Shown piece after piece: positions 3,201-39,384 of a DNA stretch of 52,919 nt; position 1 is the stretch's first letter; the number at the start of each line of letters is the position of its first letter. Position numbers and translations under genes: made by a program. Source of the stretch: a virus; IMG/VR virus record IMGVR_UViG_3300045988_125841, positions 1 through 52,919 of that record. One strand, 5' to 3'. The notes under the pieces were generated by a model. That model had not been told where the DNA came from, ran no database searches, and saw only the letters and a program-made list of their open reading frames with translations.

Positions 3201-6200
3201 TGTGAATATTCCGATAATGTTTTCAAAGCTTGAGCGTCCTTTGGAGAAAGGGTCTCAATGAATTCTTTCGAAAATTTCGGTACTTCCTTTATTGTACTTT
3301 GCGGGTCTTTAACAAACTCTCTCACAAATTCAGCCACTGCCTCGTCCGGTACTTCACTTTTTTTATATTGCTTCATCAATGTTGGGCTTTTTCGTTGTGC
3401 AAAGTCGATTATCTCATCAATATTAGCTGATGAAGTAAAATCATATTCATCATCAAGCAAATGTCCTAATTCGTGAGTAGCTGTCGGCAAGTCATTTGCT
3501 ATACGAAGTCTTACAGCTTTCGAAAGTTTCTTAAACTCACCTTTAGCTCTTGTCAGTGACAAATTTCCTTTTGAAATAGGTATATTGAACTCTTTTGAAA
3601 TATACGAAACAATATCGCCTAATTTCTTATTCTTTTGTTTTTTGCTGTTCTGCAGTTCGTTAGACGTCCAAGTATCAACAGTATTAGCTTGCTTAGAATA
3701 CTGAATATCACTACTCGTATCAGTCTTGTTTACTATTTTCTCACTTGTTTCACTCGTGTTCTCTGCTTTTTGATTTGCAGATGTTTCATTATAATGCTCA
3801 TACTTGTATGTTATATCTTTCTGCTTGGCAAGAGCTTCTTTTAGCTCTGTTTCTTTTTCGAAAGGCTTATTTGCTTCCTGCTTTGCAAATTCCAAATCGC
3901 TTTTAAACTTAGTAATACTATTTTGTGTATTGCTTAAATCCGAATCAAGCCTCTTTAGAACACCTGCTATTCTTGCAATATTATTTGCACCGCCAGCATA
4001 CTCGACTGTGTAGGTGTTTTCACCTTGAATTACAAGTGAGTAATCCATACCGCCTGTATTGCCTTTAAACTTAATTTTAAAGCCGTTATATGAGCCGATT
4101 GCATTATATTTGCCATTCTTCGGAGCAGACTTTATAGCTTCTGAAAGCGCTTTGTTTGCGTCTTTTTGTTTTTCATAACGCTTATCTTTAATGATTATTT
4201 CATTCTCATTATATTTATCTCTTAAAGCAATATCATTTTTCAAGCCTTTTTCTCGGTCAGTGTACTCCTCTATCAAGTGTGGATTTTTTGCAACGACATC
4301 TTGATAGTGATAAATTTCATTCAAATAACCTTGTTCCAGTGTTTTAAGTCTTGACACTTCTTTGTCTATATCTATCTTTTCTTTTACAAGTGGATTGCCT
4401 GATGTTATAGCCATAGCTGTTGCGGCGTCTATTGATTCGCCACCGTCGTCGCTTGCTCCGACATCTTCCATTTCTGAAATTGCGTCGCCTCGCAAAGCGG
4501 CTCTTATCATTTCGCCTTTGCGGTCCTGCGCTTGCCACTTATGACTGTCGAAAGTGTTTTCTTGTAGGTATCTGTAAATGCGTACTTCTTTGTTGATATT
4601 TCCCGAACGAACACCACGAGCATTACTTTGTTCCCAATCTGACGGTTTATATGTAACTGTGGGGTGATGTATTGCTACAACACGTTTTTGAACGTTAAGT
4701 CCCTCAGCCATCTTCTGACAAGTTCCAATTAATACACGAACGTCGCCGTTATTTACTTTTTCGTATAGCTCTTCAAGCTGTGCGTCTTTTTGGTTGCTTA
4801 TTATAACAATTTCTTCTTCCGGTACACCTCTTTCAATCAGTTTATTTTTAATATCCTTATGCAAATTAAAAGAATATACTTCGCCAGAACCTGCACCTTT
4901 ATCGCAAAATATGATTTGAGTGCCTTTTATGTTATTAGAATTTTTGTACTCATTGAGAACTTGTTTACACATAGTGTTAATTTTACTATTTTCGTGTTCA
5001 AGTTCATCAACAGAGTAATCTTTATACATATTTACGTCTGTTTCAGCGCCTGAAAGCATTCTTGTATCAACAGACGCCATATCTGCCATCGCCATTAGAC
5101 GAGCATATACTTTTAGCATTTCTTTCTTGTTAGTATTAGCTAAAGTATCTGTAATTTGTTGTTGTATTTGCTTATGCTCCGGAGTTCCTTCGATTTTTAT
5201 GTCTACATACTTCGCTTTAGGCAAATCCTTTACAACATCTTCTGTAAAAACTATGTCTGCGAATTGTCGAAACAGTCCTATCATTTCAGACGCATTTACA
5301 AAACTGCGTATTACTTGTGTTGATTTCGGTTTAATCTGCCCATCAATTCCTAATTCTACTGTGTTTTCAATTTTAGCAAATGTATTAACCCATTCATCAA
5401 GTGAATGTATTCCTGCTTCTTCTAATATATCTGGTCGTACCATTCGCATCATATTGTATATTTCTGATACAGTATTTGTTATAGGTGTGCCTGTTCCAAA
5501 CACGATTTTTCCGTTTATTGAACGCAAATAGTCTAACTTCATCAGCATATCGTTAGCTTGCTGTGCACTGCTACTATTTGCTAAACCTTTAATACTAAGT
5601 GATGTAGGTGTTGTAATACTTTTATAGTTATGTGCTTCATCTACACAAATAGCGTCAAAACCAAGCTTTTCAAATTCAATACCGTTTTCATCACGTTTTG
5701 TATCTGCATTTAGATTTTTTAATTTATCTTCAAGGTTATTTCTCTTTTTTATCAGATTTTTATATGCTCTTGTAGAACCATCTCTGTTGCTTTCAGCTTC
5801 TGCGATTTGTATATTGCATTCTTCAAGTTGTTGAGAAATAAAATTTGCTTCCAGTTGCTTACTTACCGGTATTTTAGTGAATGTAGTTCTTGCAATAAGG
5901 ACTATATCCCAATCATTTGAATTAACCAATCCAAGCATAGATTGTCTTTTGGCTTTTGCTGTATCTATCACAAGCACTTTTGCTGTCGGATAAGCTTCTG
6001 CTATATCGTTTCTGAAATCGACTACTTTGTTGTTTGGAACAACCATTGCAGTTTTATTTATGATACCCATTCGCTTAGCTTCCATAACCGAAGCAATCAT
6101 TTCAAATGTTTTACCTGTTCCTACACCGTGTGCAAAAAGAGTATTTCCGCCAAACAAAAAGCGTGCAATACCGTTCTTTTGATGTGGATATAGCTTTTCT

Positions 6201-9200
6201 TTTAATTCTTCGCTCATTGAATCAAAGGATAACTTTTCAGCTATATTCTTGTAATTAAGAGGTCTGTAATTATTGTACATTCGGTTATACTTATCTACAA
6301 TAACATTTCTTCTTTTGCTGTCACGGAATATCCAGGAATTGAAAACGTTTTTTATATCTTCAGCTTTTTGCTTTGCGACTTCTGTCATTTTTGTATCTAT
6401 AGTAACAACTTCTTTACCGTCAACAACAGATTTCGTTTTAGCCAATATTTCGCCGTCATTTAACACCTTTTCAAGAAGTTGTACCGCATTAAAAGCCTTG
6501 CAACCATATTTTGTGTTCACGATTTCGCCATATCGTCTTTGTCCTGCTCCATCAATCTTCCATTTTCCGCTTGAATCTTTTTCTATATTCAAGCGTTGAC
6601 CAAAAGTATCAAGTGCAAAACTTTCTATATATTTCGGGTCGATATAGTTTGCACCGAGTTTAACAATTATTTCAGAGGCATTTTTAGGTTTTGGTAAGAC
6701 TTGCTCAAGCATTTTTTCTTGTTCTTCAAAGTCGGGCTTACCTTTTACTTCGTCTAACTTTTCGTAGATGTTGCCCGACAAATATATATCAGTAAGAACA
6801 TAATCGCCTTGAGGTGTAAGCACAATTTCACCCTTTAATTCATCAGCAATCTGTTTTTCGGTTTTGCCCGTCAATTCTTGCATATGTTTAAAATCGACTT
6901 TGCCTGTTTCGTTTATAGATACTACAAGTGCGTCAGACGCAGTATCCACTTTAGTAATTTTTTTCTTGCGTAACGTATCTTTTTCAAACAATACCGATTT
7001 TGCAAATTCTTTTTTTGCTTTGTCGTATCTTTCCAAACCGCCTACTAAATAGAAATCTGAATCAGCTTTCAAAAAACTATTGTTCGTGCTTTTCTTTTTA
7101 CCTATTTTTTTCTTTCCGTCACCTGTAATCGGACCGTGTTTTTTATAAAAATTATCATATACTTCTGATAATTTTTTTCTTAATATTTCAATATCATCAT
7201 CCGGCAATTCTTTTTCGTAAGCTTCAAGAAGCTCTTTATAAACGTCCCTTACTGCAATATAGTCGCGTGCTGTATTTTCTTTTGCTCCCTTTAAAGCAGT
7301 TGCTGTTCCTGCTCCGTCGTCTTCATAAATGCGTCCGCCTTTTTCAAAAAATTTAGGCTTTTCAGACCACGAAACAAGTGTTTCAACTTTCTTTAACTCA
7401 CTTTTGCCATTCATTAGTCCTTTCGGCAATTTTGACATTGCGTCGTTTAGTTTTTCGTAGAAGTTACCATCACCGATTACTGTTGTAATTTCGCCCCACG
7501 CATTAGTTCCTTTCGCGAGAGCGCCTAAAATATTTTCCGAGTGCTTTTTGAAATACTCGTTAATTCTCAATCCATCATCGGTCGTGGTAACATTCAAAAT
7601 ACTGTCGCCACTCGGTCGCTGACCACTTGCGCGCTTCTGAAGAATTAACAAATCAGATTGTACACCGGTATTTGCACTTCGTGAAAATACACCTTCCGGC
7701 AGTTTATAGCAAGCGACAACGTCAGCTCTATCCATAATAGCTTTTCTTGCGTCTATTCCATAACTGTCTAATGTACCTGAACTTGTAATAACAGCTACAA
7801 TGCCACCCTCACGCACTTTGTCCAAAGATGATATGATAAAATAATTGTGCATTGAATATTTCTTTTTATCATATGAAATCTTGTTTTGACCGAAAGGTAC
7901 GTTACCGATTACTAAATCATATGAATTGTTTTTAAATGCTATATCTTGAAACGGTTTATTAATTACAGTTGCTCCAGGATATAGATATTGTGCAATTCTT
8001 GCAGTGTATGTTTCGAGTTCCACACCTGTAAGTGCTGATTTTGCAGTCATTGCGACAGGCATTCTACCAAAGAAATTACCTATACCCATTGAAGTTTCGA
8101 GAACGTTTCCACCTTTAAAACCTAATCTTTTAAGACCGTTATACATTGCATCAACAACTTTTGTAGGTGTAAAAAATGCGTTATTCATCGAATCTTGTAC
8201 ATTTTTTCGTTGCACACCGTCAAAATATCTGTTAAATCTTGAATATTGTTCATACGGCAGACGTCTTGTATCTATTCCACCCCACCCCTTGTATTTTGCG
8301 AGTATTTCTTTTTCTTCGTTTGTTGCTTCTCGTCCTTCTTCTTCCAACTTCAAAAGTAACTCTATTGCGTCAAGGTTATCTTTTGCACTCGGTGGAGTAG
8401 TATCGTATTTTTCAGCAAAATCATCGCTTATAACAAAATTATTCTTATTAGACGGTAACTTTTCTTTTTTGACGGTTTTTGCGCCTGTTTCTATAACATC
8501 GGGTGTATCATCGGTGTTGTCTTTTAATTGTCCAGGCTGTCCACCCATTCCTTGAACAACATCAATTCCTCCATTGTGTACTGTTCCTCGTCCTCGTCGT
8601 CCTCCGTCTGATACTCCTTCAGTTTCTGATGTAGTTTCTCTTTTATCAGTTCCTCCGTATATTCCCTCGCTATCATCTCTGACATCGGGTCTGTTTCTTT
8701 CGTTTCCAACTGATTGTCGTAGTCCGTTGTTGCTATCGTCGCTATGTGACGTATGAACTCCGTCAATTCCACTTTCTTCATTAGTTCCGTCAGTTCGGGT
8801 GCGTAGTCCTCTATCATCATTTCTACTTTTTCCGTCCAATACTCCTTGTTGCGATATGCCATTTTCTTTACCTCCGTTTTTTTGATTATCTACTTTTGAA
8901 ACCACTTTGTAATCGTGTGTTTGCTTAAAGTTTTCTATACCGCCGATATGTGAGAATGTCTGTTTGTTGTCACTCTTATCAAGATTTTCAAAACTCATAT
9001 TTAAGCCTGTTTGTGTAACTTTCCATTGCCTGCCATCATACTCGATTACATCGCCGATTTCCAAGTCAGGTATTTCTTTTATTGTATCATTTTCGGATTG
9101 GCTGTTCAATACAGTTTTATTGTTTTCTGAAACGTTTTCTTCGTCACTTTCTGTATTATTATTTGTTGATTGACTATCTTTGATATTTTCATCTGCTTGT

Positions 9201-12200
9201 ACATCATCTGTTTCTTTTAAAGTGCCTGTGGTTCCAAAGAAATCATTAAACACATCAAAAACTTCTTCTGTTGGTTCACTTTTAAAAATAAAACCCGGTA
9301 TCGGTTTGCCGTCGGGTGTTTTTGCGTATCTTGAATAATAGCCGCCTACTGCTTTTACTTTTGCATTTAGCTTTTTATATTCATCTGCTGAAATTCTCTC
9401 TTTTAAGCCTATAATCCATAAATCCTCGCCTGTTTTGGTATGCTTTGTTTGTGTGAGGTTACATTTATCTTTCAAATTTAATGTATCATTTTCTGTATCT
9501 CGACGTATACTACTATTGACAACATCACTATCTTGTGATACAATATTGTTAGTAGAGGATTTATCGTTAATAATTGCCAACCACTTATACAGTTGGGGAT
9601 TCACTTGCGATAAATCCTCTTTTTTGTATTTTATGTTTACACCTTCACCGGAAATCAAGTTTTTAGTATAGTTATCATTGGAACTGAACATTGTTACAAC
9701 AACATTGTAATCTTTGTATTTGCCACCAATATCTTTCGTACTGTTAAGCTCAACGGATATTATGCCATTATTTCCTTTTTTTGTTTTGACTGTTGTGAAC
9801 AAGTTTAGTTTACCATTTGCAAGCTGTATAATTGCGTCGGGATTTTGTAGAAAATCAGGTAATTTTTTTGCGATTTCCGCACCTAAATTGTGATAATGTC
9901 CCTCAAAAACACCGTTTTTTCTAACTGCAAGATATAACTTGGTATAATTGATTATCACTTTCAGATCTCTTGCACCTTTAACATTGTCAAGAATGACGTT
10001 AGGGGTATTTTTTAATATCTCGACCGCAACTCTATTATCTGCGAGTTCTTTTGCTGTTTCATCAGATACAGAAAGAATATTATCCACAGCATCATTGTAA
10101 TCTTCAAGTAATTGACCTACAGGAAGTGTTTCATTTGTTTTGATATCGGATTTAGGTATTTCTATTGTGGAATTGTCTTTTTGAGTTGCATTTTCCACCG
10201 GCGCTGCAAGGGGATTGGCACTGACCATTTCTTTAGCAGAATTTTCTTTAACTTGCAAATTACTCTTTATTGTATTTAATGCGTTTATAAATTGTGATAT
10301 TTCGCCCCCTGTCTTTGTTATCCCATCATTGTCGTTATGCAAATAAATCGAATATCCACTTGTTTCATTTTCGACTTGCTTCATAAATTCAATAGCAGTG
10401 TCTTGATTAGGGAATATTGCTGTTGCGTTGCCCGTCGGCAAATACGATACAATATAACTACCGTTTGAACTTTGGTGCGTGCCAAAGTGACCGTATGTAA
10501 CTCCTTGTTTTGTTTCGTATTCTCCATTTTTCTGTTTTACTGCAAACGACGTTTCACTTAGTTGGTTCGTATAGTCAATGCCTTGTTCTATAACATAACC
10601 TACATTTTGTCCATTTTCACTTACCGGAGCAAATTTTATATTGTTATTTGCATTTTCACTTATATTAAGTGAAGAATAATCGCCATTTTCTATATCTTGC
10701 ACTTGCGCGTTTAAAACTTCGTTTGCACCATATACATTATTGTGTAGATTGGCGTTTTTCTTTATCCCCTCTCTTAAAACATCTTTAAAATTTCTGACTA
10801 CGGTTTGAAATTCTCTGTTTCCGTCAAGTACACTGTTTCCGGTAAGAGTTTTATTTACAAGTTCATCAGCAAGATTATCTGTTTCTTGTGATAAAACTGT
10901 GTAGCTACGTCCGTTTTTCTCTGACATAGCTTGCACAAAGTCATTCGCATAGTTGCTTACATAGTTTCTGTCAAAAAGATTATCATTGTTCGACATAAAC
11001 TTTGTATTTGCCTCTTGTATACCTGTTGCACTTTCAGATACATTTAAGCCGACTTTATTCATTGCATTATGTACTTTCTCTGTAACTCGATTTACAGACG
11101 ATTGTACGCCGTTTTCTTGCGTGCTTATATTAGGTAATGTATCTATTGCATTTAATGTATCTACACTGTTAATCTCACTCGTTGTATCGTTAATGGTTGA
11201 ATTATCAGCGTTAATTTTGCTGTTTTGAGTGTTAATGTTGCTTATATCATTTACTTGCGCATTTAATGGTGCTGTTTCTTGAACTGTCTGCAAAGGCTCT
11301 ATTTCCGATGTTTTCGGTACATTTTGTATCGAATTTTCAGTTTGTGGTGTTGCATTTACGTTATTAATGTTTGTAGCTTCATTTACCTCATTGCCTGTTT
11401 CAGCAGTATTCATTTTGTTTAAAGTATTTTCTGCTACTCTTTTATCATAATTTATAACTTTTTCGTCTGAAAGTATATCTCTATACGCATTCATCGTTTT
11501 AACGAAGTAATCATTCATTTCCGCTACGCTTGATTTTTTCCAATCAATTTGTTTTGGAAGTTCAGGCATTTCTGCACCTGCCTCACGCACTTTCTGTGAT
11601 ACCTCTTTGTTGGTTCTGCTAATAATTTTTTTTACTTCATCACCATATTGTCTTACACTTTTTGCGTCAGTATGTAAAATGTTATCTACTACACCTGCAC
11701 CGCCCATTACAGCACCACCGACAGCACCGCCAAGAAAACTCTCGCCCAAAGCAGGTAAATCTATAACACCCTCTTTACCTACAAGTTTTCTTTGTTGTAT
11801 TTTTCCGTTTTCATCAACATATCCTACTTTTGAAACGACGTCACCCATTCTTTCAAATAATGTTGCGTACACTTCTTCCAAACCTTCACCGACATTAGCT
11901 TTCATATACTGTTTAAGAACTTTGCCGACATTCTTTTTTGTTGAGCCTGTTGGACTTAACGCAAACATCATACTTTTAGGAGTGCCATCATACCCCATTT
12001 TTTCTGTAATTGTATTCACATAACCTGTGAACATTGCATTTTTATAAGCCGTATCTTTGTCATATCCATTTTTGACAAGGTCGTCATATTTTTGTTGTGC
12101 TGAATCGATACCCATAAGCAAAGTAGTAGAATTATCCAAAGGGTTTAAAAATTTAGCAGCCGAACCTATCGAAAGGGTATTAGCTTTATTGATTGCGGCA

Positions 12201-13786
12201 TTAGCAATTTTTGAGCCAATTCCTTTTTCAGCGACATTTGCTATATCAGGTGTGGCATTTGCAACTTTAGAAATAGCTTGACCCGCTTTTGTTCCTTTTG
12301 CGGTCATTCCTATTGCTCTTCCTACACCACTTGTCAAGTCATTCAGACCTGTCATTTCAGCTGTGGCTGCCGCACCTGCCATTTCACCTGCCGACCTAAA
12401 CCCCCACTCGCCTATAGCATGAGTTATAGGATTTGTGTCGTTGTATCTTTCCATCCATTTGTCAAGATTTAATTTTGCAAAATAATCCCCTTTAGCACCG
12501 GAAGTATCAGAAGTTTTACTAAAAAAATCATTTCCCAACTCATCAGGATTTTCAGTATAATATTTATCAATTTCTTGCAACTGTTGCGAATATTCTCCAC
12601 CACCCAATTTTGATGCTTTAAAAGGAAAACCGTCTTTTACAAACGTCCTTATAGTGCTATCAGCTGAATCGTATGCACCCTTAAAGAAATTCGCAATAGG
12701 TTGAGTAATTTCTTTCTCTACACTGTCTTTACCGTTTGAACTTGACATAAGCGATAGTTTCTTTAAACCGGCATAAGATTTCGCATTTTTTAGTTCGTTT
12801 TCTGATAGGTCTAATTTATCTATCATTTCGTCAAGTTGTTGTGCTTTTTTATATTTATTTTTTTCTTTATTGCGTTTAAGAAAATTATCTATTGTCTTAA
12901 CTGTTCGATATTTTAACGAAATACTCTTATTATCCGTTATCGGTATATCGACTTGTTGATTTAGATATTCTTCTTTTTCGTCTGAATCTGATTGTTCTTC
13001 GTTCGGGTTTGTTTTTAAATTATCAGTCCCTCTTTTGGCAATATTAATAGCACCATACTTACCCGAAAAGTGCATAAGTTTGCCTCTATCCTCTGCACTG
13101 TATGGCTTATGATAATCTTTTTCGTCACCGTCAACGCCTGCAAAAATGCCGTGAACATATTTGTCGCCCACTTGCATACCTTTTTTATCAAGCGTTTCTA
13201 ATTCTTCATTTGTAACATTTCCGTTTTTTTCATATGCCTCTTTCACTAAAGAGTTCATATAATTATCAACAGTACCTTTATCCAAAAAAGTTCCGTCAGG
13301 CATAATAGGCGTATAAGCCACATTCCAACCGCTGTTATTTATATCCGTTCCGAATTTATCAGAACCACCAAATACTGTATCAATACCGCCGATTTCAGGG
13401 TCATACCCCCAACTTTTCAACTCATTTTCATACTTCTTCTTTAATTCATCATTCCAACGTATAAGAGGTCGCTTGTTCATATTGACATTGCCGAATTTGG
13501 TTGGGAGTTCCTCTTTTTTGATTTGGTCTATTGTGTAATCGTAAAATCCCCAATCTTTTGCTTTTTGATATTCGTTTTGTAGTTCTTGAATTTTAGGTAT
13601 ATCATTAAAACTTGACTTTCCTGTTTCTTTGAATAAACCCTTGCCCTTTTCGATTTTCTTTGTGTTTTTTGTTTCTTCTTTTTGTTCAGAGGGTACACTT
13701 CTTGGTGTGTACCCTTGTTTTGTTAATTCATCACGAATTGATTGAACATTATTTTTAAAATCCTTATATGATGTTATTTTTCCCAT
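281..13786 (-). CDS. Giant 4501-aa polyvalent protein: unassigned N-terminal ~1640 aa, N6-adenine methyltransferase, SNF2/DEAH helicase, HExxH metallopeptidase motif and a ~1000-aa unassigned C-terminal region
   Basis: An uninterrupted 13.5-kb ORF in AT-rich DNA. SD 'aggag' lies 7 nt upstream of the ATG. Enzyme motifs are listed as separate sub-features. It is the last gene of the late operon. Confidence 0.9.
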   Translation of the reverse strand: MGKITSYKDFKNNVQSIRDELTKQGYTPRSVPSEQKEETKNTKKIEKGKGLFKETGKSSFNDIPKIQELQNEYQKAKDWGFYDYTIDQIKKEELPTKFGNVNMNKRPLIRWNDELKKKYENELKSWGYDPEIGGIDTVFGGSDKFGTDINNSGWNVAYTPIMPDGTFLDKGTVDNYMNSLVKEAYEKNGNVTNEELETLDKKGMQVGDKYVHGIFAGVDGDEKDYHKPYSAEDRGKLMHFSGKYGAINIAKRGTDNLKTNPNEEQSDSDEKEEYLNQQVDIPITDNKSISLKYRTVKTIDNFLKRNKEKNKYKKAQQLDEMIDKLDLSENELKNAKSYAGLKKLSLMSSSNGKDSVEKEITQPIANFFKGAYDSADSTIRTFVKDGFPFKASKLGGGEYSQQLQEIDKYYTENPDELGNDFFSKTSDTSGAKGDYFAKLNLDKWMERYNDTNPITHAIGEWGFRSAGEMAGAAATAEMTGLNDLTSGVGRAIGMTAKGTKAGQAISKVANATPDIANVAEKGIGSKIANAAINKANTLSIGSAAKFLNPLDNSTTLLMGIDSAQQKYDDLVKNGYDKDTAYKNAMFTGYVNTITEKMGYDGTPKSMMFALSPTGSTKKNVGKVLKQYMKANVGEGLEEVYATLFERMGDVVSKVGYVDENGKIQQRKLVGKEGVIDLPALGESFLGGAVGGAVMGGAGVVDNILHTDAKSVRQYGDEVKKIISRTNKEVSQKVREAGAEMPELPKQIDWKKSSVAEMNDYFVKTMNAYRDILSDEKVINYDKRVAENTLNKMNTAETGNEVNEATNINNVNATPQTENSIQNVPKTSEIEPLQTVQETAPLNAQVNDISNINTQNSKINADNSTINDTTSEINSVDTLNAIDTLPNISTQENGVQSSVNRVTEKVHNAMNKVGLNVSESATGIQEANTKFMSNNDNLFDRNYVSNYANDFVQAMSEKNGRSYTVLSQETDNLADELVNKTLTGNSVLDGNREFQTVVRNFKDVLREGIKKNANLHNNVYGANEVLNAQVQDIENGDYSSLNISENANNNIKFAPVSENGQNVGYVIEQGIDYTNQLSETSFAVKQKNGEYETKQGVTYGHFGTHQSSNGSYIVSYLPTGNATAIFPNQDTAIEFMKQVENETSGYSIYLHNDNDGITKTGGEISQFINALNTIKSNLQVKENSAKEMVSANPLAAPVENATQKDNSTIEIPKSDIKTNETLPVGQLLEDYNDAVDNILSVSDETAKELADNRVAVEILKNTPNVILDNVKGARDLKVIINYTKLYLAVRKNGVFEGHYHNLGAEIAKKLPDFLQNPDAIIQLANGKLNLFTTVKTKKGNNGIISVELNSTKDIGGKYKDYNVVVTMFSSNDNYTKNLISGEGVNIKYKKEDLSQVNPQLYKWLAIINDKSSTNNIVSQDSDVVNSSIRRDTENDTLNLKDKCNLTQTKHTKTGEDLWIIGLKERISADEYKKLNAKVKAVGGYYSRYAKTPDGKPIPGFIFKSEPTEEVFDVFNDFFGTTGTLKETDDVQADENIKDSQSTNNNTESDEENVSENNKTVLNSQSENDTIKEIPDLEIGDVIEYDGRQWKVTQTGLNMSFENLDKSDNKQTFSHIGGIENFKQTHDYKVVSKVDNQKNGGKENGISQQGVLDGKSRNDDRGLRTRTDGTNEESGIDGVHTSHSDDSNNGLRQSVGNERNRPDVRDDSEGIYGGTDKRETTSETEGVSDGGRRGRGTVHNGGIDVVQGMGGQPGQLKDNTDDTPDVIETGAKTVKKEKLPSNKNNFVISDDFAEKYDTTPPSAKDNLDAIELLLKLEEEGREATNEEKEILAKYKGWGGIDTRRLPYEQYSRFNRYFDGVQRKNVQDSMNNAFFTPTKVVDAMYNGLKRLGFKGGNVLETSMGIGNFFGRMPVAMTAKSALTGVELETYTARIAQYLYPGATVINKPFQDIAFKNNSYDLVIGNVPFGQNKISYDKKKYSMHNYFIISSLDKVREGGIVAVITSSGTLDSYGIDARKAIMDRADVVACYKLPEGVFSRSANTGVQSDLLILQKRASGQRPSGDSILNVTTTDDGLRINEYFKKHSENILGALAKGTNAWGEITTVIGDGNFYEKLNDAMSKLPKGLMNGKSELKKVETLVSWSEKPKFFEKGGRIYEDDGAGTATALKGAKENTARDYIAVRDVYKELLEAYEKELPDDDIEILRKKLSEVYDNFYKKHGPITGDGKKKIGKKKSTNNSFLKADSDFYLVGGLERYDKAKKEFAKSVLFEKDTLRKKKITKVDTASDALVVSINETGKVDFKHMQELTGKTEKQIADELKGEIVLTPQGDYVLTDIYLSGNIYEKLDEVKGKPDFEEQEKMLEQVLPKPKNASEIIVKLGANYIDPKYIESFALDTFGQRLNIEKDSSGKWKIDGAGQRRYGEIVNTKYGCKAFNAVQLLEKVLNDGEILAKTKSVVDGKEVVTIDTKMTEVAKQKAEDIKNVFNSWIFRDSKRRNVIVDKYNRMYNNYRPLNYKNIAEKLSFDSMSEELKEKLYPHQKNGIARFLFGGNTLFAHGVGTGKTFEMIASVMEAKRMGIINKTAMVVPNNKVVDFRNDIAEAYPTAKVLVIDTAKAKRQSMLGLVNSNDWDIVLIARTTFTKIPVSKQLEANFISQQLEECNIQIAEAESNRDGSTRAYKNLIKKRNNLEDKLKNLNADTKRDENGIEFEKLGFDAICVDEAHNYKSITTPTSLSIKGLANSSSAQQANDMLMKLDYLRSINGKIVFGTGTPITNTVSEIYNMMRMVRPDILEEAGIHSLDEWVNTFAKIENTVELGIDGQIKPKSTQVIRSFVNASEMIGLFRQFADIVFTEDVVKDLPKAKYVDIKIEGTPEHKQIQQQITDTLANTNKKEMLKVYARLMAMADMASVDTRMLSGAETDVNMYKDYSVDELEHENSKINTMCKQVLNEYKNSNNIKGTQIIFCDKGAGSGEVYSFNLHKDIKNKLIERGVPEEEIVIISNQKDAQLEELYEKVNNGDVRVLIGTCQKMAEGLNVQKRVVAIHHPTVTYKPSDWEQSNARGVRSGNINKEVRIYRYLQENTFDSHKWQAQDRKGEMIRAALRGDAISEMEDVGASDDGGESIDAATAMAITSGNPLVKEKIDIDKEVSRLKTLEQGYLNEIYHYQDVVAKNPHLIEEYTDREKGLKNDIALRDKYNENEIIIKDKRYEKQKDANKALSEAIKSAPKNGKYNAIGSYNGFKIKFKGNTGGMDYSLVIQGENTYTVEYAGGANNIARIAGVLKRLDSDLSNTQNSITKFKSDLEFAKQEANKPFEKETELKEALAKQKDITYKYEHYNETSANQKAENTSETSEKIVNKTDTSSDIQYSKQANTVDTWTSNELQNSKKQKNKKLGDIVSYISKEFNIPISKGNLSLTRAKGEFKKLSKAVRLRIANDLPTATHELGHLLDDEYDFTSSANIDEIIDFAQRKSPTLMKQYKKSEVPDEAVAEFVREFVKDPQSTIKEVPKFSKEFIETLSPKDAQALKTLSEYSQQYYNSDFMDKVDAAMTSNKEIKKKNKPTASEISKEIYTKLVDSFAPIKEATDYVKELKGTLSGRKDAYILAINSKNVDATMSTIFKEGMVDPNGNLTGGKGLIDCIKDISHKDIDLFDKYLVLKHSLEWIEPQEGAKLKRVFSDDTLQNSERIKREIANLENNHPEFKEASENLYKFQQDMLKYWVVSMGGMDAITYNKLQKMYPHYVPFMRDTGRNRTGFKSGFANQQSPVKTAKGSGATIISPLESIIKNVEKQVKFGTRNRVMAVLGMYADNVPGFANFIEPVPPDQVKNIINIEKLSDEFLGRMSESLDENDLFNLTEVFEDVFGTQVESYTPVVIPGKQIVTYLNKGKRKYYQVHDKALFNAITNLTPVQTGKIMNFAGRTLGITNALITQLNPVFATTNAIRDYDTAMKNSKAYNNPITFTGAYMSALWDVIRNSDNYKQYKAAGGGHMSMFSDNIDVLKKTLREVNSKDAGLARRLAQAIFLHPIECVTKINEITEAIPRLAEFKGMKKKGADNQQAIYAASDITVNFNRSGEVGRKLNKIFRFSNATVQGMDKQARIFTSGGKKEIAKHMLRYLISAILTTALLEFWNRTSDEDGWEELSQYQKNNFYCISIGNGKFIKIPKSREAAILNTTAERAADYAFGDKEAFYQFGQYIGDTTLPAWLPVTGIAEGGIEEGVHQAAGGTILGGIVDNMVNKDFKGTPIVSSALEDEPNKEQYNQKTSLLAKSIGQTFNWSPMKIDHLIDNYTGIIGKLNRSVTADGFNPSNLYGTSFSADSAYSTDVFNKVYERRDKMFKKYQNNPTPQNACMYEKYASKATYITQANKAIKRLSESEQRKARQELIADVRNINSGITDTDKSIVGLFNSKQMTTDDGYMSSLPQSKITMTVDKQSYIWEMTYTEYKKYYEDYQKVLEANRKKLINTSKYQGASDNEKTEMLKQLGSDVLKAIKDQYKEKNKSKFKKDE
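3461..3475 (-). other. HExxH zinc-metallopeptidase motif inside the giant ORF (aa 3438-3442, 'HELGH')
   Basis: Context is 'LPTATHELGHLLDDEYDF'. No other catalytic residues could be assigned by eye. Confidence 0.5.
4550..6250 (-). other. SNF2/DEAD-like helicase module of the giant ORF (boundaries approximate, aa ~2510-3080)
   Basis: Walker A 'GVGTGKT' (6107..6127), 'VDEAH' (5630..5644), 'GTGTPITN' (~5478..5497), 'LIGTCQKMAEGLN' (~4695..4730) and motif VI 'QSNARGVRSG' (4601..4630). Confidence 0.8.
7330..8400 (-). other. N6-adenine DNA methyltransferase-like module of the giant ORF (boundaries approximate, aa ~1800-2150)
   Basis: SAM-binding motif I 'ETSMGIGNFFG' (8066..8098) precedes the catalytic motif IV-like 'GNVPFG' (7889..7906). 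This motif order is typical of gamma-class amino-methyltransferases. Confidence 0.7.
8524..8862 (-). CDS. Candidate nested gene in the +1 frame of the giant ORF (112 aa, acidic, helical-looking)
   Basis: ATG at 8862 is preceded by 'GGAGG' (8871..8875) with an 8-nt spacer. This is the longest same-strand alternative-frame ORF in the 13.5-kb gene, and it spans exactly the disordered linker. Confidence 0.25.
   Translation of the reverse strand: MAYRNKEYWTEKVEMMIEDYAPELTELMKKVELTEFIRHIATIATTDYDNQLETKETDPMSEMIAREYTEELIKEKLHQKLKEYQTEDDEDEEQYTMEELMLFKEWVDSLDN
8530..8880 (-). other. Low-complexity G/D/R/S/T/N-rich linker of the giant ORF (aa ~1636-1752)
   Basis: The main frame reads 'GKENGISQQGVLDGKSRNDDRGLRTRTDGTNEESGID...GGRRGRGTVHNGGIDVVQGMGGQPGQ'. 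The coding strand here is purine-rich. Confidence 0.7.
11687..11737 (-). other. Gly/Ala-rich hydrophobic segment in the giant ORF (aa 684-700, 'FLGGAVGGAVMGGAGVV')
   Basis: Read directly from the translation. It follows a longer A/G/T-rich stretch ('SAGEMAGAAATAEMTG...') and may be a membrane-inserting segment. Confidence 0.45.
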
Positions 13787-32067: not shown

Positions 32068-33405
32068 TTAGAAATAACTCCTCCTTTTTTGTGTTTTGCC
32101 CTTTATCGCTCGCTCTCTGTACTTTTGCACCGCTGTCTTTTCCTCTTTCGGTGGTTTTGACGGTGATGTGAATTGCAACACGAAATATCGCAATGCGTCA
32201 GGTAAATGTGTTATATCGTGCGGTTCTGTCGCACAATCCGTTGGATGTTTGGTATCACGTTGCAACGATGTTAAACAGTCGATTAATTCAATGCAGTTAT
32301 CGAATATCATCAATCGGCTACTGCCGTTTTTGACCTGTAATAAATCTTTGACTGCCAGCCAACCTGCCTCACGGTTATTTGAACTTTTTAGCAGTGGCAA
32401 ACCGCCCTCGCGGAACAAATCTGCCTTTGTCTTGCCGCTTTCTTGCGTCCTGCCCCACATATCGGGTGGAGCGGCGGTGTATTCTATCCGTTCGTCAGTC
32501 GGTGTCAGATTGACTATTTCCCCCGCACCGACTGAAATAACCTTATTGCTTTCAGCATATTCGCGGTAAACATAGTAGTTACCGCGTTCATCAATAGCCA
32601 CCCATACACACGCCAAGCAATCCAAACCGTAGTCCATTCCGCGATATTTACGCCAATGTTCAGGAATTTGAAACGGTTTAACAATATGTATTGACCTGTC
32701 AAATTCATCGAAATATCGCCCTTCGAGCAAGTCCCAACTGCCGTCACGCCACGCCTCTCGCAGTCCGTCGGGCAGATTATTTAACATATCAACATAGCCT
32801 GTATCTGTTTCCAATAACACCGCATTATCAAACACCGTCGCAGGAATGAACATATAATCGTTAGGATTTTCTGCATTCCTGTATTTTCGTGATACAAACA
32901 GACGTTTTACCCATTCGTGACCGACACCGCCGGGGTTACACGTCAGATACATACGTTTCGGAAACGAATTAGCACCTCTGATGCACGCCGTCAACGTTGA
33001 ATACTGATATTCAGTGAATTGCGTAGCCTCGTCCATAAAAATGACATCATACTCAATGCCCTGATACTGATTGACATCGTTCTCGCTGTCGCAATATCCC
33101 ATTTCCAACAGTGAACCGTTATTGAAATAGAAACACTTTTCCTGTTTGCTGTATCTCGCAATGCCTTTTAGCAACGGCTCCAGTTCGCGAACGTGGTTAC
33201 GCTCTAAATCTCTGTACGTCCGTCGCAGAAATAACATTTTTATACCTGCATATCTGATAGCCAATAGTACCGCTTTCATTCTGACCGCCCACGACTTGCC
33301 GCCCCCTCTTGCTCCGCCGTACATAATCATTCTGTTATGTGCGGTGAAAAACTGTTCCTGTTTCGGATTGGTACGTGATAGGTCTAATTTCAGACTATTC
33401 TGCAT
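32068..33405 (-). CDS. terL: Terminase large subunit
   Basis: Walker A 'GGARGGGKSWA', Walker B-like 'VIFMDEATQ', and a C-terminal nuclease-region size consistent with TerL. Confidence 0.9.
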   Translation of the reverse strand: MQNSLKLDLSRTNPKQEQFFTAHNRMIMYGGARGGGKSWAVRMKAVLLAIRYAGIKMLFLRRTYRDLERNHVRELEPLLKGIARYSKQEKCFYFNNGSLLEMGYCDSENDVNQYQGIEYDVIFMDEATQFTEYQYSTLTACIRGANSFPKRMYLTCNPGGVGHEWVKRLFVSRKYRNAENPNDYMFIPATVFDNAVLLETDTGYVDMLNNLPDGLREAWRDGSWDLLEGRYFDEFDRSIHIVKPFQIPEHWRKYRGMDYGLDCLACVWVAIDERGNYYVYREYAESNKVISVGAGEIVNLTPTDERIEYTAAPPDMWGRTQESGKTKADLFREGGLPLLKSSNNREAGWLAVKDLLQVKNGSSRLMIFDNCIELIDCLTSLQRDTKHPTDCATEPHDITHLPDALRYFVLQFTSPSKPPKEEKTAVQKYRERAIKGKTQKRRSYF

Positions 33406-33904
33406 ATTTCATCACGTCCTGTGGCATTTTAATTTCAATCGTCGTATTTTCGGTCGATTGTCCCTGTGCTAATGCACGCTTATCATACAGAGTGCCGACT
33501 GCTGTGCTGATTTCGCTTAACTTGTGCAGTTCCAAAGCCTTTATTTTAGATATCAAGGCTTTTTTCTGCGGCACTGTCATATCTTCGTCGTTGGATACTT
33601 CATCTAATAGCCCCTCCAATTCTTGTTGGTACTTCAATGCCGTTTCCATACGCCTGTTAATCAGTTCCGCACCGTTTTCAATGGCTCTGCTCGCCGTTTC
33701 GATGAAACCCTCGCGGACCTCTCGGCGTTTTTCTGCATATTCGTCCATATCAGGCGGATGTCGTCGCCACCACGATTTTAACGTGTTTACGGGAATACCC
33801 ATTTTGCGCGATACTAATTCCCAATTTCCCAATACCGTGTATTCCGCAAATGCCTGCTCACGGTCGGCGTCTGTATATGTTCTCTGTTTTGCGATGGCTG
33901 ACAC
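33395..33904 (-). CDS. terS: Terminase small subunit (HTH type)
   Basis: N-terminal HTH-like 'WELVSRKMGIPVNTLKSWW'. It overlaps the terL start. The GTG start has a poorly spaced SD, so the start is uncertain. Confidence 0.7.
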   Translation of the reverse strand: MSAIAKQRTYTDADREQAFAEYTVLGNWELVSRKMGIPVNTLKSWWRRHPPDMDEYAEKRREVREGFIETASRAIENGAELINRRMETALKYQQELEGLLDEVSNDEDMTVPQKKALISKIKALELHKLSEISTAVGTLYDKRALAQGQSTENTTIEIKMPQDVMKYAE

Positions 33905-33978: not shown

Positions 33979-34108
33979 TTCTACCTACTATATGTAGTAA
34001 ATCAAATCTATCCCCCTCACTATTTTCCAATTTTAATATTTTTGCATTTTGTATATATTGCATAAATTATCATAGGAATATATGTACACTTTTCATAAAC
34101 ATATTTAA

Positions 34109-34153
34109 CTTTAGCATAAAAGTATTGACTTTGGCATAAAAGTATGCTATACT
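34109..34153 (+). promoter_or_regulatory. Near-consensus sigma-70-type promoter of the moron, with two 17-nt direct repeats (operator candidates)
   Basis: -35 'TTGACT' (34125..34130), a 17-nt spacer and -10 'TATACT' (34148..34153). The repeats are 'ctttagcataaaagtat' (34109..34125) and 'ctttggcataaaagtat' (34129..34145). Confidence 0.7.
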
Positions 34154-34208
34154 ATAATCAGAAAATAACAAAAGAGGTCAGCCGAAAGGCAAGAAAGGAA
34201 GATTAATT

Positions 34209-34475
34209 ATGAAAAAGAGATTAATTTACGGAGAAACAAACGCATACGACATTATCATTAGCATTGACGAAGAAGGACGTTGCAGATACGTCACAGTCAA
34301 AGAATGGTTCCCGAATTTAGCTGACTGTGATGATGACGAAAAAACTGAAAAAGCAGAAGAATTTTTAAGAACTATTGAAGATGATAGCTCTTGGGAAAAC
34401 GACAGTTACGAATTATCAGCAGACGAAGTATTAGAATATGTAGACATCATCGCTGAAATTGAAAAAGAGCTATAA
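34209..34475 (+). CDS. 88-aa highly acidic protein (27 D/E), function unknown; anti-defence candidate
   Basis: It has an SD and lies on the opposite strand to all neighbouring genes. It is the first gene of a self-contained promoter-terminator unit. Confidence 0.75.
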   Translation: MKKRLIYGETNAYDIIISIDEEGRCRYVTVKEWFPNLADCDDDEKTEKAEEFLRTIEDDSSWENDSYELSADEVLEYVDIIAEIEKEL

Positions 34476-34587
34476 AAACGCAATTCCGACGCATTTCGGT
34501 GCGTCGGTGCAATGCAGAGGTGCAATATGATAAAAAAATGTATAATCTTTGGAGGGTTATCATAGATAATTAAAGGAGGAAAATAAA

Positions 34588-35013
34588 ATGTTAAAAATAA
34601 TTAAGGGAAGAAAGTATGATACCGTAACTGCAACTAAAATATGCAGTTACGATAACGGCTTGCCGGAGAGCGACTTTGACGCCCTTTGCGAGCAACTATA
34701 TATAAAGCGTACCGGAGAGTTTTTCTTGTATAGCTACGGCGGTGCAAGAACGGCTTATGCCGAAGCCGACGGTAATATGTGGACTTCGGGTGAGCGAATT
34801 GTTCCACTTTCGGAAAATGACGCAAAGGCGTTTGCCGAAGAACACGCCTCACCGGAAGTTTATGAGCAATACTTCGGTGAAGTGTCGGAGGGCGACACCT
34901 ACCGAACAACAATAACGTTATCGGCAGGAGCTAAGAAAAAGCTTCAGTCACTTGCTCTCGAAAGACGTGAAAATATCAGTCAAATCGTGGAAAGACTGAT
35001 TGAAAACGCATAA
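34588..35013 (+). CDS. 141-aa protein with a C-terminal ribbon-helix-helix (CopG-like) DNA-binding motif
   Basis: SD 'aaggagg' lies 8 nt upstream. The C-terminus 'TITLSAGAKKKLQSLALERRENISQIVERLIENA' fits a beta-strand/helix/helix RHH pattern. Confidence 0.8.
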   Translation: MLKIIKGRKYDTVTATKICSYDNGLPESDFDALCEQLYIKRTGEFFLYSYGGARTAYAEADGNMWTSGERIVPLSENDAKAFAEEHASPEVYEQYFGEVSEGDTYRTTITLSAGAKKKLQSLALERRENISQIVERLIENA

Positions 35014-35014
35014 C

Positions 35015-35050
35015 AAAAAAGACGGTTACCGTTTGGTAACCGTCTTTTTT
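35015..35050. terminator. Strong bidirectional intrinsic terminator
   Basis: 'aaaaaa-gacggttacc-gttt-ggtaaccgtc-tttttt'. The GC-containing stem has an A-run on one side and a T-run on the other. Confidence 0.85.
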
Positions 35051-35109
35051 AGGAATAAATGAAAAAATATAATATCTCTCAAGTGAGCATATATATTATA
35101 CCACATTTT

Positions 35110-35415
35110 CTACCGCAACTCAAAGTGAGTTAAGTTATACCGAAACCGTTTATAAAATTCTCGTTTTAGGTTGAATAATCGTTTCGGGTGCAATCCGTAT
35201 TGCATTTGTATGTAGACGTGATTGACGGAGCTGTCCGTCAGAAATTTATATAGCGCCTGATAGTCCTCTCCTGCGACTTCAAGACACATATTCAGCACTG
35301 CCTTATCTTGCTCCGGCAGTCGTTTAGCATTAACACACAGGAAATATATTAATCCTTGCGTGTTATAGCTTATCCCCAATTTGTCTAACGTCCTTGAATA
35401 TCGAAACTCCGTCAA
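35110..35415 (-). CDS. 101-aa protein at the position of late-gene activators (weak sigma region-4/ArpU-like C-terminus)
   Basis: It is the last early/middle gene before the packaging module. The 'GLHPKRLFNLKREFYKRF' resemblance is weak. Confidence 0.6.
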   Translation of the reverse strand: MTEFRYSRTLDKLGISYNTQGLIYFLCVNAKRLPEQDKAVLNMCLEVAGEDYQALYKFLTDSSVNHVYIQMQYGLHPKRLFNLKREFYKRFRYNLTHFELR

Positions 35416-38521: not shown

Positions 38522-38764
38522 TTATTCGCACGGCTCGTACTTTGCGTGGAACACATCAGGCTTACACGGGTAATATTCCCCTCGTAGTCCTCTGATGATG
38601 TAGTCACCTGTGCTTGCTACCATATCACCCTCTAATGTTTTTATTATCAGTACTCCGTTTGTAATAATAGCACTTTCATTTTTTACAAATCGCATAATCT
38701 CTACTACATTTCTGCCCGTCCATTGTACCGCCTCAATTTCACACGGTTTTGTTCTAAACTTCAT
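38522..38764 (-). CDS. 80-aa conserved small phage protein, unknown
   Basis: '[26 protein letters not shown]' is a motif seen widely in phage early regions. Confidence 0.7.
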
Positions 38765-39384
38765 TTTTGTTCCTCCATTAATTTTAACGTTCTTTTCAGT
38801 TTTTCGTCTGCAATTTTGTTTATTGTGCCATTGTCAATGTTAAATAAATATTGCAACTGTATCATCATTACAATTACGTCCGATAATTCTTCCTCTACAC
38901 TGTCTTGAACTTCGGACATTAATTTTAGTGCAGGCTGACCGCCTTGCGATATTCTCAAATACTTAGTCAACGCTTGTGTTAATTCAGCCATTTCTTCAAT
39001 CGCTACCGGAATTTGTTTAATACCGTAATAATTTGCTATGTCTAACCAATCTTGTTTTTTGTATATCGGCATAACCGCATTTTCTTCCAAATACTTTAGT
39101 GTGTGTAACCAATTTGCAAGCTGTTGGTGTTCTTCTACATACTCCAAACAATTTTTAATTGTGACTTCTTCGCAATATTCTATCGCCTCATCAAGCGTCA
39201 TAGTCTTTGATTTTATTTCTGTTGTCGAACGCATATTCCAGTTGCTTATTACGCTCTCTTTTTCTACTGCCGTGCAACTTCTTGCACTGCATTGGTGACA
39301 TTCTATCTGATAATAGCCACAATATGATTGATATAATTCCGCCTCGCCTCCGCAGAACGGACACGGCTTTAATTCATTATACAT
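38761..39384 (-). CDS. Fusion of a Lar-like restriction-alleviation zinc ribbon and a MazG-like NTP pyrophosphohydrolase domain
   Basis: N-terminus '[13 protein letters not shown]...CHQCSA' is Lar family-like. The C-terminal '[12 protein letters not shown]' and '[13 protein letters not shown]' are MazG-type acidic motifs. Confidence 0.75.

Follow-up and report, generated by a model that had tools for sequence, protein, structure and literature searches.

A small cassette of plus-strand genes is located at positions 34108-35050 of the virus record IMGVR_UViG_3300045988_125841, a stretch of 52,919 nt referred to here as the window. It lies between a terS-like gene (33395-33904) and a gene for a protein of 101 amino acids (aa; 35110-35415), both on the minus strand. 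A reading of the DNA made from its letters alone (the sequence-only reading) had described five parts: a promoter with repeats, an acidic 88-aa protein, a hairpin, a 141-aa protein with a ribbon-helix-helix (RHH) motif and a bidirectional terminator. All five are present. The same reading had singled out the cassette as the sole plus-strand unit amid minus-strand genes, and this is borne out by a survey of the open reading frames (ORFs), which revealed no other convincing plus-strand gene from 281 to 46851. The two genes, ORF88 and ORF141, are both preceded by good ribosome-binding sites. The window belongs to a temperate phage with genes for TerL, a P22-type portal, RecT, a DnaB_2-type replication protein, a Lar-like protein, an ImmA-like peptidase and a tyrosine integrase. 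Relatives of this phage carry a homologue of 140 aa with about 60% identity to ORF141, whose source record names Hominilimicola sp. The cassette is carried by a temperate Clostridia phage of gut bacteria.

The promoter is of the sigma-70 type. The promoter scan places TTGACT-17-TATACT at 34125-34153 of the plus strand (-35 at 34125-34130, -10 at 34148-34153), as the sequence-only reading had it, and adds an extended -10 TG at 34145-34146. An alternative promoter, TTGGCA-16-TATAAT, overlaps it at 34131-34158, with its -10 TATAAT at 34153-34158; the two score 10/12 and 11/12 matches, respectively. The same arrangement can be observed in the loci L010, L063 and L275 and in the phage LFP01.

Two repeat copies cover this region. 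They had been described as 17-nt direct repeats over the -35 and the spacer, and are better defined as two 16-bp palindromes 20 bp apart. The putative operator O1, ACTTTAGCATAAAAGT, occupies 34108-34123 (plus strand), just upstream of the -35. The second, O2 (ACTTTGGCATAAAAGT, 34128-34143, plus strand), covers the final three -35 bases together with most of the spacer. Each consists of the arms ACTTT and AAAGT around a 6-bp centre, AGCATA in O1 and GGCATA in O2, and the distance of 20 bp from centre to centre corresponds to about two helical turns. The junction AAAGT-ATTG-ACTTT forms the TTGAC of the -35 and is kept across lineages. Within the cassette the arm pattern occurs at O1 and O2 only, and a third exact match in the window is located at 3168, inside a giant ORF; this count exceeds the chance expectation of 0.21 per window. 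The full operator motif, allowing up to two mismatches, is found at the O1 and O2 sites only.

The 5' leader (34160-34208, plus strand) contains the ribosome-binding site GAAAGGAAG at 34193-34201 and is conserved among related loci. These loci carry varying genes, termed cargo, ahead of the ORF141 gene, and the families are labelled A (ORF88) to I. The leader is almost identical before cargo families A, D, E and F, and a related ribosome-binding block precedes cargo B. Because it is shared ahead of different cargo families, the leader is a likely recombination joint.

ORF88 (34209-34475, plus strand) encodes an 88-aa protein with an isoelectric point (pI) of 4.06. The 27 acidic residues that had been counted are confirmed; they stand against 10 K and R residues and result in a net charge of about -17. 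The eight homologues are all at least 82% identical, and the reading frame is intact in 21 loci, which contain 10 distinct sequences. Scans of Pfam, PHROGs, NCBIfam and PADLOC yielded no family match, the sole Pfam match being a chance-level one to DUF4901. A comparison of the sequence profile with the PDB gave chance-level matches only, and AcrIC5 is not among them. ORF88 shows no match to the AcrIC5 family (PF22147), which is present in other cassettes only. Structure prediction and Foldseek had been suggested for both proteins of the cassette. The AlphaFold2 model of ORF88 is of low confidence (pLDDT 65.9) and has no meaningful Foldseek match, while the model of ORF141 is confident and has no PDB match at E <= 1e-3. 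In the homologue P0064, the N-terminal 35 residues are unrelated and the C-terminal 50 residues are identical to ORF88, which identifies it as a recombinant. ORF88 copies likewise differ from one another mainly in the N-terminal third.

A hairpin follows the first gene. Its outer stem spans 34480-34510 of the plus strand and its core 34486-34507, with a predicted folding energy of -20.9 kcal/mol (z = -2.7). The stem-loop was thus correctly noticed before, at 34489-34510, about 3 nt off its actual position. The identical hairpin is found after cargo A, D or E, and cargo F has a different hairpin in the same place. The 34486-34507 hairpin was considered as an intrinsic plus-strand terminator and rejected, as no T-run follows the stem.

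The spacer between ORF88 and ORF141 contains the scar of another cargo gene. At 34512-34565 (plus strand), a remnant of the Zn-ribbon/NUMOD3 gene C reads MQRCNMIKKCIIFGGLS up to a stop, with the deletion joint between 34548 and 34549. The segments 34476-34548 and 34549-34590 match, at 100% identity, the two ends of the interval between cargo A and the ORF141 homologue in locus L103, where they are held apart by 421 bp of an intact gene C (156-160 aa). This identity indicates that the spacer consists of the two ends of a third cargo gene, minus 421 bp internally.

The cassette ends in a bidirectional intrinsic terminator at 35015-35050. It has the form A6-stem-loop-stem-T6 with a 10-bp GC-rich stem, and folding (-23 kcal/mol, z = -7.6) agrees with its earlier description as strong. 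It closes the plus-strand unit, ends the converging minus-strand operon and is kept after the ORF141 homologue in related loci. A promoter-like TTGAGT-17-TATAAT with an extended -10 TG is located at 35095-35123 of the minus strand and points from the end of the 101-aa gene into the terminator and the 3' end of the cassette. This site may be due to chance, or may be the source of a short antisense or terminated transcript.

ORF141 (34588-35013, plus strand) encodes a 141-aa protein of two domains. The N-terminal domain, which we call X, comprises residues 1-102 (34588-34893, plus strand); it is a beta-rich, acidic unit of about 100 aa with a pI of 4.5. The C-terminal RHH domain comprises residues 104-141 and the stop codon (34897-35013, plus strand); it consists of a TITLS strand and two helices and is basic (pI 9.5). 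The AlphaFold2 model (pLDDT 90.8) contains eight strands and two helices in residues 1-100, followed by a linker and helices at 113-126 and 130-140. The sequence-only reading had noted the RHH motif at the end of the protein and had recognised no known family. Both observations stand, and domain X is an addition to them. Pfam RHH_1 matches residues 106-140 with E = 1.2e-3 and 19.2 bits, compared with a cutoff of 20.5 bits. The best PDB matches of the family profile are MatP, CopG, VapB26 and MazE7, all of them RHH proteins. The TITLS strand is identical to that of CopG, and relatives of ORF141 match Antitox_RHH and RHH_5. The scores are marginal but convergent, and on this basis the C-terminus is assigned to the RHH (CopG/Arc/MetJ) superfamily, whose hallmark is a unit of about 40 aa with an N-terminal beta-strand of alternating polar residues, helix A, a G/N-x-S/T turn and helix B.

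Domain X has no Pfam, PHROG or NCBIfam family match. Foldseek identified no PDB fold for the ORF141 model at E <= 1e-3, and in BFVD the model matches uncharacterised viral proteins only. We found no description of domain X or of the X-RHH family in the literature searched. The domain is highly constrained. It contains 16 invariant residues, and the mean identity among divergent members is 55.6% for X versus 31.1% for the RHH domain. A stand-alone X of about 101 aa, with no RHH nearby, is found in about 30 loci, and X is also fused to Ros/MucR. The median pI of X is 4.8. As X is more conserved than the RHH domain and often occurs free of it, ORF141 is probably not a mere regulator.

X can also occur in tandem. 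L060 carries three X genes in a row at 1599-2961, one of them a double X of 190 aa, and further tandem copies are located in L090 (3656-4306) and L046 (3662-4429); in L046, a stand-alone X immediately precedes an X-RHH gene. The stand-alone X loci (for example L028, L054, L084 and L093) have serine recombinases, DUF932 and the coupling protein of a type IV secretion system (T4SS) nearby, which suggests integrative or conjugative elements. DUF5688 is recurrent near X: five of the proteins scanned in the vicinity of stand-alone X belong to it, as does one upstream neighbour from the cargo set; a literature search on DUF5688 found nothing.

The X-RHH family is large. Clustering at 50% identity gives 4,976 clusters at E <= 1e-3 and 3,026 at E <= 1e-10, and IMG/VR contains 438 confirmed relatives. 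The carriers are Oscillospiraceae, Lachnospiraceae and other Clostridia, as well as Coriobacteriia, Anaerococcus and others, and the family is found mainly in Clostridia phages and mobile elements. In unrelated phages (L010-L014), X-RHH is the last gene of a short operon with different cargo in the classical moron slot, from the lysin to the integrase or attachment site. The cultured Lactobacillus phages LFP01 (L. fermentum) and JNU_P7 (L. gasseri) also carry it, as the final gene of the lysin-integrase slot. None of the C. difficile phages matched X-RHH.

The operators are conserved together with the family. With strict criteria O1 and O2 are kept in 33 loci, and additional divergent lineages are included if mismatches are allowed. 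The layout palindrome-ATTG-palindrome recurs, with the same arms and altered central six bases, where the X-RHH proteins are only 37-55% identical. Distant cassettes of this kind include L010, L159, L116, L124, L130, L048, L070, L136, L040 and L275. Similar RHH strands pair with similar operator centres: GVIYSLP and GVMYSLP are found with TATATA and TCTATA/TATAGA. This is as expected if each RHH dimer reads the centre of one palindrome. The sequence-only reading had proposed that the RHH protein is a DNA-binding autoregulator, and the recurrence of the operator layout in distant cassettes supports this at the level of architecture. Operator conservation is the main support for regulation of its own promoter by ORF141, which we consider highly probable.

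The surroundings of the operators and of ORF141 form a constant frame with variable contents. In 35 syntenic loci, defined by the slot from terS to the 101-aa gene, the promoter and operators, the leader, the X-RHH gene (the anchor) and the terminator are constant, and the genes in between vary. The retention of promoter, operators, leader, hairpin, ORF141 and terminator in these loci indicates that the anatomy of the cassette is more than chance. Nine cargo families build ten architectures: A, A-B, A-C, A-B-C, D-B, D-C, D-B-C, E-C, F and G-H-I. Apart from A, these include B (about 110 aa, acidic), C (about 156 aa, basic, with Zn-ribbon and NUMOD3), D (178 aa), E (177 aa) and F (165 aa). The joints are kept: B and C overlap by a few bases, a short spacer with a ribosome-binding site follows B or C before the anchor, and D and E share their last residues. 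The shuffling of the cargo would be explained by such conserved joints. Cargo losses are recent and recurrent, as indicated by the scar in the window and by a different one in L117. Integron-like attC joints were considered and rejected; the hairpin is present at the first junction only, and the other junctions are ribosome-binding blocks or overlapping stop and start codons.

In the D-B-C cassettes of L178-L180 (anchor at about 6860-7285 in L178), the start codon of the anchor is changed from ATG to ACG, with one mismatch in 446 nt relative to L122. Gene callers return only a 94-aa C-terminal product there, and the cargo genes are intact. Truncated anchor versions of 77-108 aa are common in the protein database (P0008, P0010, P0019).

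The neighbours of X-RHH fall into 165 clusters. Those located upstream have a median size of 100 aa, and the pI is below 5.5 in half of them. Judged from crude ORF calls, the anchor has a co-oriented gene upstream in 87/119 cases and no co-oriented gene downstream in 79/119. The commonest downstream neighbour is a Zn-finger/AP2-like protein (15 loci). AP2 proteins have served as markers in searches for clostridial acr loci, and acrIB2, which has been validated, sits in the same position between lysin and lysogeny module (PMC10732046). Pfam matched 12 families in total among 75 upstream cargo proteins, and PADLOC gave one marginal match to CARF for this set (E = 6e-4, cargo set A3) and none to ORF88 or ORF141 at E <= 1. 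A phage-borne cargo resembling CARF or ring nucleases would echo the csx20 genes of Aca14 operons.

Among the cargo, a known anti-CRISPR (Acr) family is present. The first gene of the L014 cassette encodes a 65-aa protein that matches Pfam AcrIC5 (E = 1.1e-4), and its sole PDB match is the solved AcrIC5. Homologues 64-71% identical to this cargo carry PF22147, and the profile of the L014/L063 cargo family matches AcrIC5 (7yhr_A) with E = 4.7e-7. When 9,106 ORFs of all X loci were searched with a hidden Markov model (HMM) of the AcrIC5-like family, the only two matches were in L014 and L063, both directly upstream of X-RHH. In the reverse test, 3 of 80 AcrIC5-like loci of IMG/VR have a full-length X-RHH downstream on the same strand: the genes overlap in L275, are separated by 30 nt in L213 and are about 1.2 kb apart in L221. 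An AcrIC5-family gene is thus located upstream of X-RHH on the same strand in five independent loci (L014, L063, L213, L221, L275). By our own rough estimate, a random viral stretch of 6 kb would contain X with a probability of < 1e-3. The 140/141-aa proteins after the AcrIC5-like genes of L188-L192 were considered as further anchors and rejected, since the HMM shows that they are unrelated.

We propose that the cassette serves a temperate Clostridia phage as an accessory operon that represses itself and is organised like an anti-CRISPR/aca locus; we see the chances of this reading as about even. Operons of the acr-aca class combine a strong promoter whose operator sites overlap the -35/-10 with a 3' gene for a DNA-binding regulator, preceded by variable genes. 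The cassette has both features. Comparisons of ORF88 with Pfam (Acr families included), PDB and PHROGs gave no match to a known anti-CRISPR gene upstream of the regulator in the window; five homologous cassettes carry AcrIC5-family genes in this place. By its predicted architecture, the cassette agrees with the acr-aca class, and homologous cassettes carry a known Acr family. The acr/aca-like arrangement seen in the sequence-only reading is supported by the constant frame with variable cargo, the conserved operator layout and the AcrIC5-family cargo of the five loci, and further by the AP2-like neighbours and the validated RHH regulators Aca14 and AcrIE10 as precedents. Its interpretation holds at the level of architecture and association.

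A working model of the cassette can be outlined. The strong promoter would be read by the host RNA polymerase with no need for a phage factor, and would fire on DNA entry and possibly in the lysogen. It would drive one or more exchangeable cargo genes, here ORF88 alone, with the scar left by a second gene that was lost. The hairpin downstream of the first gene probably raises the ratio of cargo to repressor, either via partial termination or by stabilising the upstream RNA. As ORF141 accumulates, its C-terminal RHH dimers would bind O1 and O2, probably with each palindrome occupied by one dimer and both dimers on a single face of the DNA. Occupancy of the two sites would occlude the -35 and the spacer, and the promoter would be shut once ORF141 is sufficient. 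Domain X may bridge the two RHH dimers, similar to the effector domain of AcrIE10. The cargo would most likely serve counter-defence, with ORF88 and its net charge of about -17 acting on a host target; DNA mimicry is one possibility. Arms-race genes, rather than housekeeping takeover functions, would be expected to show such a turnover of cargo among near-identical phages. An anti-defence role of the cargo, suggested by these associations, seems to us evenly poised. ORF88 itself is an orphan and, by association, a candidate anti-defence or host-modulating protein.

Several observations weigh against this reading. The homologues of ORF88 are confined to its lineage, it matches no family, its predicted fold is of low confidence, and its tie to defence is by association. 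Of several hundred loci, 5 show the AcrIC5 link, and the Firmicutes members of the AcrIC5 family are known by sequence only. The basic cargo C (Zn-ribbon/NUMOD3) and the AP2-like neighbours bind DNA, which is not typical of inhibitors. Outside the lineage of the window, again by crude ORF calls, only 30/84 anchors are both preceded by a gene and last in the operon. Part of the constraint on the O2 arms comes from the -35 itself, and each individual RHH score falls under the family cutoff. Finally, X is better conserved than the RHH domain and is often found without it.

The last point leads to another explanation, in which ORF141 is itself the main payload. Here X would bind a host target or signal, the RHH domain would repress its own gene, and ORF88 and the other cargo would be passengers in a regulated slot. 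The constraint on X and its 16 invariant residues, its acidity, its stand-alone and tandem copies, the fusion to a different DNA-binding domain and the association of stand-alone X with mobile elements that carry serine recombinases, DUF932 and T4SS genes all speak in its favour. There is also a precedent, AcrIE10, in which the Acr domain both inhibits Cas7 and bridges RHH dimers (PMC13530269). However, fold and sequence searches give X no function, and a monocistronic X-RHH gene with its own strong promoter is rare (2/141). The anchor has lost its start codon in some phages whose cargo is intact, and X could be a mere oligomerisation domain for the cooperation of two RHH dimers. We consider this explanation possible, if tentative, and it overlaps with the acr/aca-like reading rather than excluding it. 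A moron for host takeover or lysogenic conversion, unrelated to immunity, appears unlikely. In such a cassette, ORF88, made early or by the prophage, would inhibit or modulate a host process such as transcription, replication or division, and ORF141 would restrain it. The strong factor-independent promoter, the insulation by terminators and the location at an early/late boundary or prophage end are in line with this, as is the lack of a recognisable function in most of the cargo. Small acidic proteins are also typical of host-takeover modules. On the other hand, the sole cargo with a recognisable functional family is AcrIC5-like, and the very high cargo turnover among near-identical phages fits arms-race genes.

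The sequence-only reading had named a toxin-antitoxin (TA) or exclusion cassette as the main alternative. A TA, abortive-infection or superinfection-exclusion system, with ORF141 as a HicB-like antitoxin and its neighbour as the toxin, is very improbable in our view. ORF141 does resemble HicB in its layout of an N-terminal domain with a C-terminal RHH and in its presumed autorepression. Autorepression by RHH proteins is the norm in type II TA systems. On a Methylobacterium plasmid (L198, NZ_CP155001.1, 30861-31723), an X-RHH homologue that covers 99% of the query at 31% identity (A1 profile E = 2.7e-25) carries the annotation of a HicB-family antitoxin, and a gene for a PemK/MazF toxin follows 8 nt after it. 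It is the only toxin-linked context that was found. MazF homologues are absent from 180 loci, and the 53 downstream and 75 upstream neighbour clusters include no toxin family, except for the plasmid MazF included as a control. The strongly acidic ORF88 has no toxin domain and is not HicA-like, and only the terminator is located 3' of ORF141 in the window. Type II TA systems are recognised by an adjacent toxin with conserved pairing and, for HicB, by the N-terminal fold or family. Neither was found. ORF141 has no HicA or other conserved partner, as the neighbours are spread over 165 clusters, and the 75 proteins scanned with PADLOC gave a single marginal match. As a HicB antitoxin, ORF141 was rejected for the window: it has no HicB match in Pfam or NCBIfam (E <= 1), no HicB fold among the Foldseek matches listed and no toxin. 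This alternative thus found almost no support, with no toxin or defence domain in ORF88 or the 75 cargo clusters and with partners that are not conserved.

Similarities and differences to described acr-aca systems can be observed. Aca14 of Pasteurella multocida is a validated RHH-type regulator at the aca position (PMC13551039). Like the proposed ORF141 system, it combines an RHH protein at this position with AT-rich inverted repeats overlapping the promoter and with variable partners, and it represses its own operon (PMC13551039). It differs in being a single-domain RHH protein with a helical extension, from Proteobacteria, and in a repeat that overlaps the -10 (PMC13551039). The description of Aca14 sets it apart from ORF141, which has the additional beta-rich domain X of about 100 aa, two tandem palindromes around the -35 and a distribution in Clostridia phages. 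AcrIE10, encoded on Klebsiella plasmids, is a bifunctional RHH-Acr protein and a validated regulator, whose Acr domain acts as an inhibitor of Cas7 and also connects RHH dimers across a 20-bp operator (PMC13530269). Like ORF141 in the proposed model, it is a DNA-binding autorepressor fused to a domain that does not bind DNA, is encoded by the last gene of a small operon and serves as a conserved anchor of acr loci (PMC13530269). AcrIE10 binds as a dimer of dimers to a repeat of about 20 bp that covers the -35/-10 (PMC13530269), and the operators of ORF141 are 20 bp apart. In AcrIE10 the RHH domain is N-terminal and the effector domain helical, whereas in ORF141 the RHH domain is C-terminal and X is beta-rich. 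AcrIIA1 and AcrIF24, which are fusions of a helix-turn-helix (HTH) domain and an Acr, represent a similar two-domain type with DNA-binding and Acr functions.

The acr operons with Aca1 and Aca2 in Pseudomonas and Pectobacterium phages share the order of a strong early promoter, two repeats, variable small cargo and then the repressor gene. In contrast to the cassette, their regulators are HTH proteins, Aca2 also binds the mRNA leader, and the hosts and protein families are unrelated. The AcrIC5-AP2/AcrIB2 loci of Firmicutes and Actinobacteria phages occupy the same position between lysis genes and integrase (PMC10732046; PMC7913775), and AcrIC5-family and AP2-like genes share operons with X-RHH in L014, L063, L213, L221 and L275. 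The cassette of the window differs from them in that it contains no AcrIC5-like or AP2-like gene and instead carries ORF88 and the NUMOD3/Zn-ribbon scar. X-RHH is not mentioned in PMC10732046 or PMC7913775.

The window phage invests in counter-defence elsewhere too. A single ORF of 4,501 aa at 281-13786 (minus strand) contains LPD38, SNF2-related and MuF_C domains and constitutes a giant polyvalent protein. Such proteins have been proposed to be delivered alongside phage or conjugative DNA as counter-defence cargo. The gene at 38761-39384 (minus strand) encodes a protein of 207 aa that contains a Lar restriction-alleviation domain (E = 4.3e-12). In syntenic relatives, Gad2 (anti-Gabija) and Spo0A_C genes are located near the Lar-like gene; tblastn did not find them in the window. 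In the prophage relative L015, on a 257-kb contig, an IS110-family transposase (380-1606) is inserted amid the packaging genes near the terminase.

It can be speculated that domain X acts as a sensor or as a decoy, with a conserved immune component or immune signal of the host as its target, and that the RHH tetramer would leave both operators once X is occupied. We regard this as a long shot. If it were true, counter-defence proteins would be made only in proportion to the threat, as has been shown for AcrIE10 and Cas7. X-RHH would then be a very large unnamed family of threat-responsive anti-defence switches in gut Firmicutes phages and mobile elements, and its operon partners would amount to a ready catalogue of new anti-defence genes, hundreds in number.

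To our knowledge, phages of the dominant gut Clostridia have yielded few anti-defence genes so far, and the discovery of such genes has been held back by a shortage of conserved marker genes. X-RHH could be a guilt-by-association marker for such genes, as Aca1, Aca2 and AcrIIA1 were. It is abundant, easily recognised and usually the last gene of a short, strongly promoted operon, with diverse, small and often acidic partners upstream, some of them from a known anti-CRISPR family. The cultured Lactobacillus phages that carry it are workable models, which makes experiments feasible. The locus also provides an evolutionary snapshot, in which cargo is exchanged at conserved joints between near-identical phages. 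The strong conservation of domain X raises the question of its binding partner. The main value of the cassette could thus lie in a new, abundant anchor for the discovery of anti-defence genes in gut Firmicutes phages, together with a strongly conserved and unexplained domain.

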